Positions 55,724-56,362 of a stretch of 64,000 nt of DNA are shown here, piece by piece. The stretch's first letter is position 1, and each line of letters opens with the position of its first letter. Location: contig OZ024740.1 in assembly GCA_964016885.1 (NCBI GenBank), forward strand, positions 331,204,001 to 331,268,000, given 5' to 3'. A program made the translations under genes and the position numbers. The DNA is from Eledone cirrhosa (lineage: Eukaryota). A model generated the notes under the pieces. The model ran no database searches. It saw nothing but the letters and a program-made list of their open reading frames with translations, and was not told the DNA's origin.

Positions 55724-55733
<10 letters not shown>

Positions 55734-56362
55734 CGTAAAATAAGAAAATCTTTTAAAAAAATTTTTATTTTTTTTATTTTTTACTTACTTACTTAAATTT
55801 TCACTCCAACTAATTAGTTTCTGCAATGGGATAAAGACAGTTACGTAATCTAACTGTCGAGAATTCATTGCGTCATCAGGGAGTCTATTCTCAGCTAAGT
55901 CTCCAGGAAATGCGCGGACACTGGAGGCTCATATAAAAATAATAATAATTCGGTAGATGGAACAGCTAGCGAGGACTGAATTCCATGCACTGAAATCCTC
56001 ACTGCTTCTAGTCAAATGGCCGATTCTAAAGAATCAATCACGTGACACAGAGGCTAGTCAGAAGGAATGGGATGGTAAGATGACTGACGCCTACTAACAC
56101 CCCCCAAACAATTTTTTTTAGAAGTGGTTTTGGCAGGTTTGCTCGACAAATCAGTGATTTGGAGATAAATATAGATAATTTAATATATCAACTAACATAA
56201 GCGCACAGATGCACGCCTATGCCAGCAAATACACAGGTTATGTCATAGTACCTAGGTGGTTCAATGCAGGAGGATGCAGAACAATAATATAAAAGACGTA
56301 AAATAAGAAAATCTTTTTAAAAAAAAAATTTTTTTTTTTAATTTTTTACTTACTTACTTAAA
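55724..56362 (-). mobile_element. About 563-nt hammerhead monomer with about 75-bp direct terminal repeat (retrozyme-like)
   Basis: atataaaagacgtaaaataagaaaatc...ttacttacttacttaaattt at 55724-55800 and 56288-56362; flanked by TA/TG tracts. Confidence 0.72.
55804..55883 (-). ncRNA. Type I hammerhead ribozyme
   Basis: CUCC-CUGAUGA-C-GCAAUG...GACAGUUA/UAACUGUC...CAUUGC-A-GAAA-CUAAUUAG-UU-GGAG; stems I, II and III all pair, palindromic stem III. Confidence 0.8.

Follow-up and report, generated by a model that had tools for sequence, protein, structure and literature searches.

Does the 5' end of a hammerhead-bearing insertion record self-cleavage of the RNA from which it was copied? The question is raised by a minus-strand insertion in a 64,000-nucleotide stretch of the Eledone cirrhosa genome (the window). 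The preliminary description of this locus had inferred either an RNA template whose 5' end was made by self-cleavage or a little more than one pass around a circle. The function of the hammerhead in Penelope-like elements (PLEs) is called unclear (PMC8557442), and the ends of insertions are a natural in vivo read-out of its role in the transposition of PLEs and animal retrozymes. With some 90 young insertions, older subfamilies for internal comparison, two priming sites that are defined and a substrate of 640 nt, the family described here makes the choice between a cut linear RNA and a circle directly testable.

Samples and scoring of ends

Copies were collected with the terminal 29-mer of the insertion, which has 150 exact matches. 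Sample 1 comprised the first 100 of these (62 loci, minus two segmental duplicates and the nested locus L068; the window copy was excluded). The remaining matches formed a held-out set of 29 loci, with nine already collected and one left out. Sample 2 consisted of 55 insertions in the first 95 Mb of contig 1 that were chosen by the hammerhead pattern, with L265 and secondary fragments dropped; its subfamilies differ by 2–11% from the young one and are mostly older. The 5' phases were hand-curated from BLAST ends. An initial copy set was left out of the statistics because its full-length query favours long copies. A further DNA search for a fresh sample returned nearly all known loci and one new locus (L274), which was not counted. 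In four sequencing runs, with repeats skipped, neither an empty site nor a circular joint was found.

The insertion in the window

The insertion spans 642 nt, or 1.14 turns of a non-coding unit of about 565 nt: one unit from cut+8 round to the cut, followed by cut+1 to +84 (Table 1). Strand, hammerhead core and predicted cut all lie where they had been placed previously. The element does begin with sequence equivalent to 55800, as described, but its first base is 56365 rather than 56362. The proposed start about 7 nt past the cut agrees with the seven nucleotides found to be missing; the 5' end is given as +8 to +11 because AAA is common to insert and flank, so that up to three A's may belong to the latter. 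The unit length of 563 nt holds at the 3' markers and becomes 565 nt at the 5' markers, since the A/T tracts differ. The repeat of about 75 nt after one unit was recovered as a terminal repeat with 92% identity over 79 aligned columns. No target-site duplication is readable at the window copy, which has microsatellite flanks on both sides, and six-frame translation of the insertion gave no long ORF. Its local GC is 0.32–0.38, and the fold of the unit is more stable than 100 of 100 shuffles (z −5.25). With one hammerhead, the copy is a 'monomer' as Li et al. use the term.

Table 1. Features of the insertion and its flanks (window positions)
Feature	Position	Strand	Basis or remark
Whole insertion	55724..56365	-	One unit plus overhang to +84
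5' end at cut+8	56363..56365	-	56365 corresponds to 55800; AAA also in AT-rich flank
Terminal repeat, 5' copy	56287..56365	-	Stops at internal site-1 copy (TTTTATAT)
Terminal repeat, 3' copy	55724..55800	-	Stops at 3'-end site 1
3'-end site 2, an ATAT tract inside the unit, about 118 nt past site 1	56169..56182	-	End in other copies and in second arms of inversions
(TA)19 microsatellite, 3' end of insertion	55691..55728	.	Likely target
AT/AC microsatellite flank, 5' end of insertion	56366..56420	.	Sequence
Type I hammerhead fold	55803..55884	-	Predicted; compensatory stem II changes in relatives
Hammerhead stem I	55884-55880 pairs 55807-55803	-	Predicted, 5 bp
Hammerhead core	CUGAUGA 55879-55873; GAAA 55821-55818	-	Sequence
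GUU triplet	55810-55808	-	Sequence
Stem II	55871-55866 pairs 55828-55823; inner hairpin 55858-55851 with 55843-55836	-	Predicted
Stem III, palindromic	55818-55809	-	Predicted
Predicted cleavage site, after GUU	55807..55808	-	Hammerhead consensus; window copy reads through intact

The hammerhead motif

On the minus strand, 55884-55803 reads ACUCC-CUGAUGA-C-GCAAUG...CAUUGC-A-GAAACUAAUUAGUU/GGAGU, which is the layout of a type I hammerhead. In the 3.0-Gb genome the pattern is matched exactly 3,812 times and the reversed control not once; with the compensatory variation in stem II, this argues that the motif is not due to chance. Stem II is GCAAUG/CAUUGC in 309 of the 369 motifs tallied and the doubly compensated GUAAGG/CCUUAC in 33; these motifs come from fetched loci, and overlapping loci enter repeatedly. 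GUU is the triplet in 368 of the 369, and in 359 the base of stem II carries a C.A mismatch; the window copy conforms in both respects. The earlier wording, 'well-formed hammerhead', thus holds for the layout and needs qualification for the mismatch, the GUU triplet, a stem III of 3 bp in the monomer and the Rfam result, as no hammerhead match to the window motif was obtained at the gathering threshold or at E up to 10. The active monomer fold is computed to lie 2.5 kcal/mol above the minimum; stem III is a 10-nt palindrome with a computed self-duplex energy of −9.0 kcal/mol. Stem I with its predicted extension pairs out to about +20.

3' ends and inverted insertions

Of the 150 exact matches to the terminal 29-mer, 54 lead into ATAT and 94 go on within the unit (148/150 together); as a background, (AT)4 follows only 2.9% of window positions. 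Mapped arms end at site 1 (about cut+85) or site 2 (about cut+205), which are about 118 nt apart, are both internal ATAT tracts and read +87 and +209 in reference-locus numbering. Past either site the arms continue into (AT)n, at times via (CT)n. The overhang of the window copy is therefore a fixed, family-wide 3' end, the shorter of two PLE-type start sites, a point absent from the preliminary description.

Microsatellite targets, 5' truncation and inverted 5' copies are all present in the family. The two alternative 3' ends occupy opposite sides of the inversions, as the two ends of a PLE 'tail' would: in 72 of 73 head-to-head insertions one arm ends at site 1 and the other at site 2 (26/26 and 36/36, with very short arms read by eye, and 10/11 in the held-out set, where L305 is the exception). 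An optional 3' tail, an inverted 5'-truncated copy and a (TA)n bias form the published PLE signature (PMC8557442), the tail spanning the stretch from one internal start site to the other (PMC11167929). As judged from the genomic sequence, the 3' ends, inversions and (TA)n bias match this footprint (PMC8557442; PMC3846280; PMC11167929).

In five inversions (L065, L254, L259, L262 and L314) the start phases of the two arms coincide or nearly so, which gives a palindromic junction. A sister family (L185-L214) has a 523-nt unit of about 76% identity, in which stem II shows compensatory changes; its 3' ends lie near +60 and +180 and behave like those of the main family.

5' ends relative to the predicted cut

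Among the 84 arms of sample 1, 20 begin at +1 to +21 and three at −20 to 0 (p=2.4e-4), with six at +1/+2. When this sample is confined to the young subfamily the counts are 19 of 66, two and six, respectively. The 42 held-out arms gave five at +1 to +21 (p=0.019 versus uniform), none upstream and none at +1/+2. In the pooled, pattern-defined young set, 25 of 126 ends thus fall at +1 to +21 against three at −20 to 0, with six at +1/+2, and a count of 25 was never reached by any 21-nt window in 20,000 uniform simulations. The mostly older sample 2 (91 arms) had two ends at +1 to +21, two upstream and one at +1/+2, so that, in the present data, only the youngest subfamily has the cut-side pile-up. 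A 4-bp stem I occurs in many, not all, older copies and is only a lead to the missing pile-up there. In the sister family, ends were read by eye from the 30 top-scoring loci, a biased sample with several arms uncallable from an internal inverted repeat, and are given little weight; two lie at about +1 (L198 and L204), four at +7 to +12 and two at −12/−13.

Over all arms, seven of 217 end at +1/+2 (p=1e-5 as a 2-nt window; 1e-3 as 4 nt). Four of these (L083, L094, L014 and L230) join G-rich sequence with microhomology of at most 1–2 nt; at L026 the +1 end carries a short snap-back. Roughly four in five of the 5' ends in the young set lie outside +1 to +21. The homopolymer zone at +22 to +62 is enriched in every sample (15/84 in sample 1, 14/91 in sample 2 and 10/42 in the held-out set), so that sequence context also shapes the ends.

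From this distribution, self-cleavage probably produced the template's 5' end in the young subfamily. The plot of copy ends against the cut that had been suggested for this locus gave an excess just past the cut in sample 1, a weak one in the held-out set and none in the older sample. The self-cleaved 5' end originally proposed for the window copy is supported for the young subfamily as a family; the older sample lacks it, and for a single copy at +8 it is unprovable.

The main rival to a self-cleaved template end is stopping that is driven by structure or AT content. The retrozyme would again be mobilised by a PLE, but the reverse transcriptase would stall at the 3' edge of stem I, or the AT-rich stretch after the cut would join readily to (AT)n, with cleavage uninvolved. 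Such stopping would place ends where most of the pile-up lies (19 of 25 at +6 to +18, where stem I and its predicted extension to about +20 end and the sequence is AT-rich), and it is in keeping with enrichment at +22 to +62 in three of three samples and with the 0/42 at +1/+2 in the held-out set; it sits poorly with the ends at +1/+2 in G-rich sequence and with the few ends in the AT-rich stretch at −13 to −1. The older subfamilies are similar in AT-richness and predicted pairing, yet show no pile-up. We consider this explanation unlikely.

Linear or circular template

Nearly all longer copies read through at least one ribozyme site. A substitution-only pattern search found 110 read-through junctions, all precise, of which 100 are identical. 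Arms of the young subfamily stopped at the first site that they met in seven of 56 cases and at the second in 11 of 23; the typical product is therefore one unit plus an overhang, as in the window copy. Although they begin about 118 nt apart, arms from site 1 and from site 2 share their stop phase, and exact one-lap ends show no enrichment (3/84 and 5/91 arms, in 16-nt windows). It follows that the distance travelled does not set the length, and the second alternative of the preliminary description, slightly over one turn of a circle, is not supported as the length-setter.

In the published retrozyme model (PMC4209133; PMC7229834) the template would be a monomeric circular RNA, with slightly more than one turn setting the length. 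The precise junctions would be expected of such a template, as would the lower divergence of units within one insertion (1.4–1.9%) than between loci (3.3%), but neither the shared stop phase nor the lack of enrichment in whole-lap ends is, and a closed circle has no end at +1. Private variants were confined to one lap in 64 of 70 cases, with three in all laps and three in some (L068, L088 and L016 left out). In L018 and L075 one variant occurs in the same lap of both arms and is missing from the other laps, as expected from a linear mixed oligomer; gene conversion could mimic this, and L062 and L075 also display the opposite pattern, so that variant sharing among laps favours neither template. 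We regard a circle as the general template as improbable, while circles may serve some multi-lap copies.

Alternatively, the RNA 5' end could be the transcription start of an internal promoter that coincides with the ribozyme site or lies just past it. PLE repeats are thought to contain promoters (PMC3846280; PMC11167929), and a subfamily-specific start would account for a subfamily-specific pile-up; the start would nevertheless have to coincide within 1 nt with the predicted cut in seven arms, and we give this explanation very little weight. Random 5' truncation, with the near-cut end of the window copy due to chance, fits the older subfamilies (2/91) and yields an expected background of about one in five of the ends at +1 to +21 (4.7/25) for any single copy, but it is disfavoured for the young subfamily by the 25 of 126 ends (scan-corrected p <1 in 20,000) and is the least credible of the readings considered.

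Proposed mechanism

The window insertion is a dispersed copy of a non-LTR retrozyme. Its insertion at a TA microsatellite likely relied on a borrowed enzyme, a Penelope-like reverse transcriptase-endonuclease, and its template was likely an RNA with a 5' end cut by the ribozyme. This reading draws on the absence of a long ORF, the two fixed 3' ends, the paired inversions, the read-through of the last ribozyme site and the young 5' pile-up. The older sample, the held-out set with no +1/+2 ends, the C.A mismatch and GUU triplet of the hammerhead and the energy of its active monomer fold weigh against it. An oligomeric transcript would be partly self-cleaved, probably via paired (dimeric) hammerheads. 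The PLE enzyme would nick (TA)n and start cDNA synthesis internally on the RNA, using site 1, site 2 or, for the two target strands, both. It would copy past an uncut or religated site and run off at an upstream cut, and the cDNA end would be joined to the target with the loss of 0–20 nt, often at AT-rich microhomology. Under this scheme the window copy would have started at +84, read through once and stopped at +8.

A stronger version is put forward tentatively, as slightly short of an even chance: the genome would record in vivo hammerhead cutting that sets the 5' boundary of new insertions, the preferred template being a linear RNA cut at the first ribozyme and uncut at the second rather than a rolling circle, and the PLE enzyme would prime both strands of the TA target from two fixed ATAT sites. 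If so, cleavage efficiency would differ among subfamilies and be legible in their insertion ends.

The family and its arrays

The element class is already known, and the element is very probably a new family within it, the non-LTR retrozymes, with a clear PLE footprint. Tandem genomic copies of the unit range from dimers to long arrays; the unit has low GC, no protein-coding frame and, as judged from fold and covariation, one type I hammerhead, as expected of a retrozyme. The type III hammerhead in LTRs and the 4-bp target-site duplication of plant LTR retrozymes are not found, the topology being type I and the flanks microsatellites. A frame with reverse transcriptase and GIY-YIG domains, as in an autonomous PLE, was present neither in the window insertion nor next to the other copies examined.

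About 155 of the ~565-nt units form an 89-kb array at G000:C2:312,577,955-312,666,754 (L177, L167-L170, L101-L103, L171 and L172). It has higher-order repeats near 7 kb, and the inverted 5' part and a site-2 end in (AT)n are kept, as if a single insertion had grown in place to give a satellite. This array, on contig 2, has an older haplotype and the same end anatomy. It was rejected as the source of the window copy, as all 65 units measured have eight variants that the window copy lacks. At G000:C1:399.27-399.33 Mb a segmental triplication (L057, L059 and L095) has placed one insertion at three positions with 28.4-kb spacing.

Candidate partners and other elements of the window

The genome contains at least 150 GIY-YIG matches. 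Among the 46 of these loci that were examined, no autonomous element sharing sequence with the unit was found; they held only incidental unit insertions (L138 and L158) or matches of A/T tracts. The PLE partner is therefore one that we infer. L152 has a 938-aa open frame with reverse transcriptase, CX4CxxC linker and GIY-YIG domain, and the long frame together with the repeats on either side of it, which are 99–100% identical, marks it as a recent insertion. It carries a minimal hammerhead, and its end in (AT)n falls at an internal ATAT tract, about 65 nt past the point at which the relative L135 ends. Neptune-type PLEs of E. cirrhosa thus show retrozyme-like end anatomy, the anatomy being common to both, with no sequence shared among the 46 loci examined. 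In the Neptune-type families L152:1773-7960 and L121-L148 the repeats bear a U3-A8 variant of the minimal hammerhead with an ACCGGU stem III.

The window holds further repeats with hammerhead-like cores. A 435-nt tandem and inverted repeat at 12699-14268 has cores at 13156, 13590 and 14025 (plus strand) and 13008 (minus strand), a palindromic CUAG stem III and (AT)n flanks, with a near-identical core in L145 and L161. Three 657-nt units at 39059-40949 (minus strand), with hammerhead-like cores at 39414, 40071 and 40728, end in (AT)n and are probably another retrozyme family. At 43868-45762 a segment of about 300 nt occurs in direct and inverted copies with a CUGAUGA...GAAA core (43950, 45207 and 45565) and long adjoining (AT)n. 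One tRNA-like Rfam match lies at 41085-41156 (minus strand). We take 1452-1988 (minus strand) to be a LINE-type fragment of an APE-like endonuclease and 6649-7251 (plus strand) to be a reverse-transcriptase-associated fragment, also of LINE type.

Comparison with known systems

The hammerhead resembles the minimal type I hammerheads of metazoan PLEs (PMC4209133) in its 5-bp stem I, long stem II, extra base after A9, G10.1-C11.1 pair and palindromic helix III suited to dimers. It differs from them in a second extra base (A) before G12, which gives the C.A mismatch, in U at position 17 and in a stem II with a large internal loop and a further hairpin. The predicted energies, with a weak stem III in the monomer and a strong self-duplex, fit the dimer-type minimal hammerheads of PLEs (PMC4209133).

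With animal non-LTR retrozymes (PMC7229834; bioRxiv 10.64898/2026.07.22.740005) the family shares a tandem unit that is non-coding, low in GC and furnished with a single type I hammerhead, the occurrence as monomers, dimers, multimers and a long array, and the presence of PLEs in the same genome. The unit length falls inside the 51–972 bp range of Li et al. (bioRxiv 10.64898/2026.07.22.740005) and exceeds the 170–400 nt of the RNAs that Cervera and de la Pena tested (2020; PMC7229834). RNA circles belong to the published systems, whereas the present family is known from genomic DNA alone. The available text of the two retrozyme papers contains no mapping of insertion ends, whereas the ends here reveal a pair of fixed start sites, which are strictly paired in inversions, and a stop close to the cut; a search of accessible main texts located none that plots where retrozyme insertions end relative to the cut.

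EN+ PLEs of the Neptune type (PMC8557442; PMC3846280) are likewise truncated at the 5' end, form partial tandems, have an inverted 5' copy and a tail at just one end, and use (TA)n targets without a readable target-site duplication. The family differs from them in having no ORF, in a tail of about 118 nt rather than 30–40 nt and in a unit without sequence homology to the 46 GIY-YIG loci examined. In Poseidon of Anolis (PAc), the sole reconstituted PLE, cleavage is dispensable in vitro, and none of the RNA reads ended at the cut (PMC11167929), two points that weigh against a template cut by the ribozyme. Homology is not required for PAc priming; here, by contrast, each of the two sites is an ATAT tract that matches the target. 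As in the present family, PAc has two internal start sites downstream of the hammerhead and primes both strands, and by subtraction from the published positions (PMC11167929) one of these start sites lies 85–92 nt past the PAc cut, compared with about +85 here.
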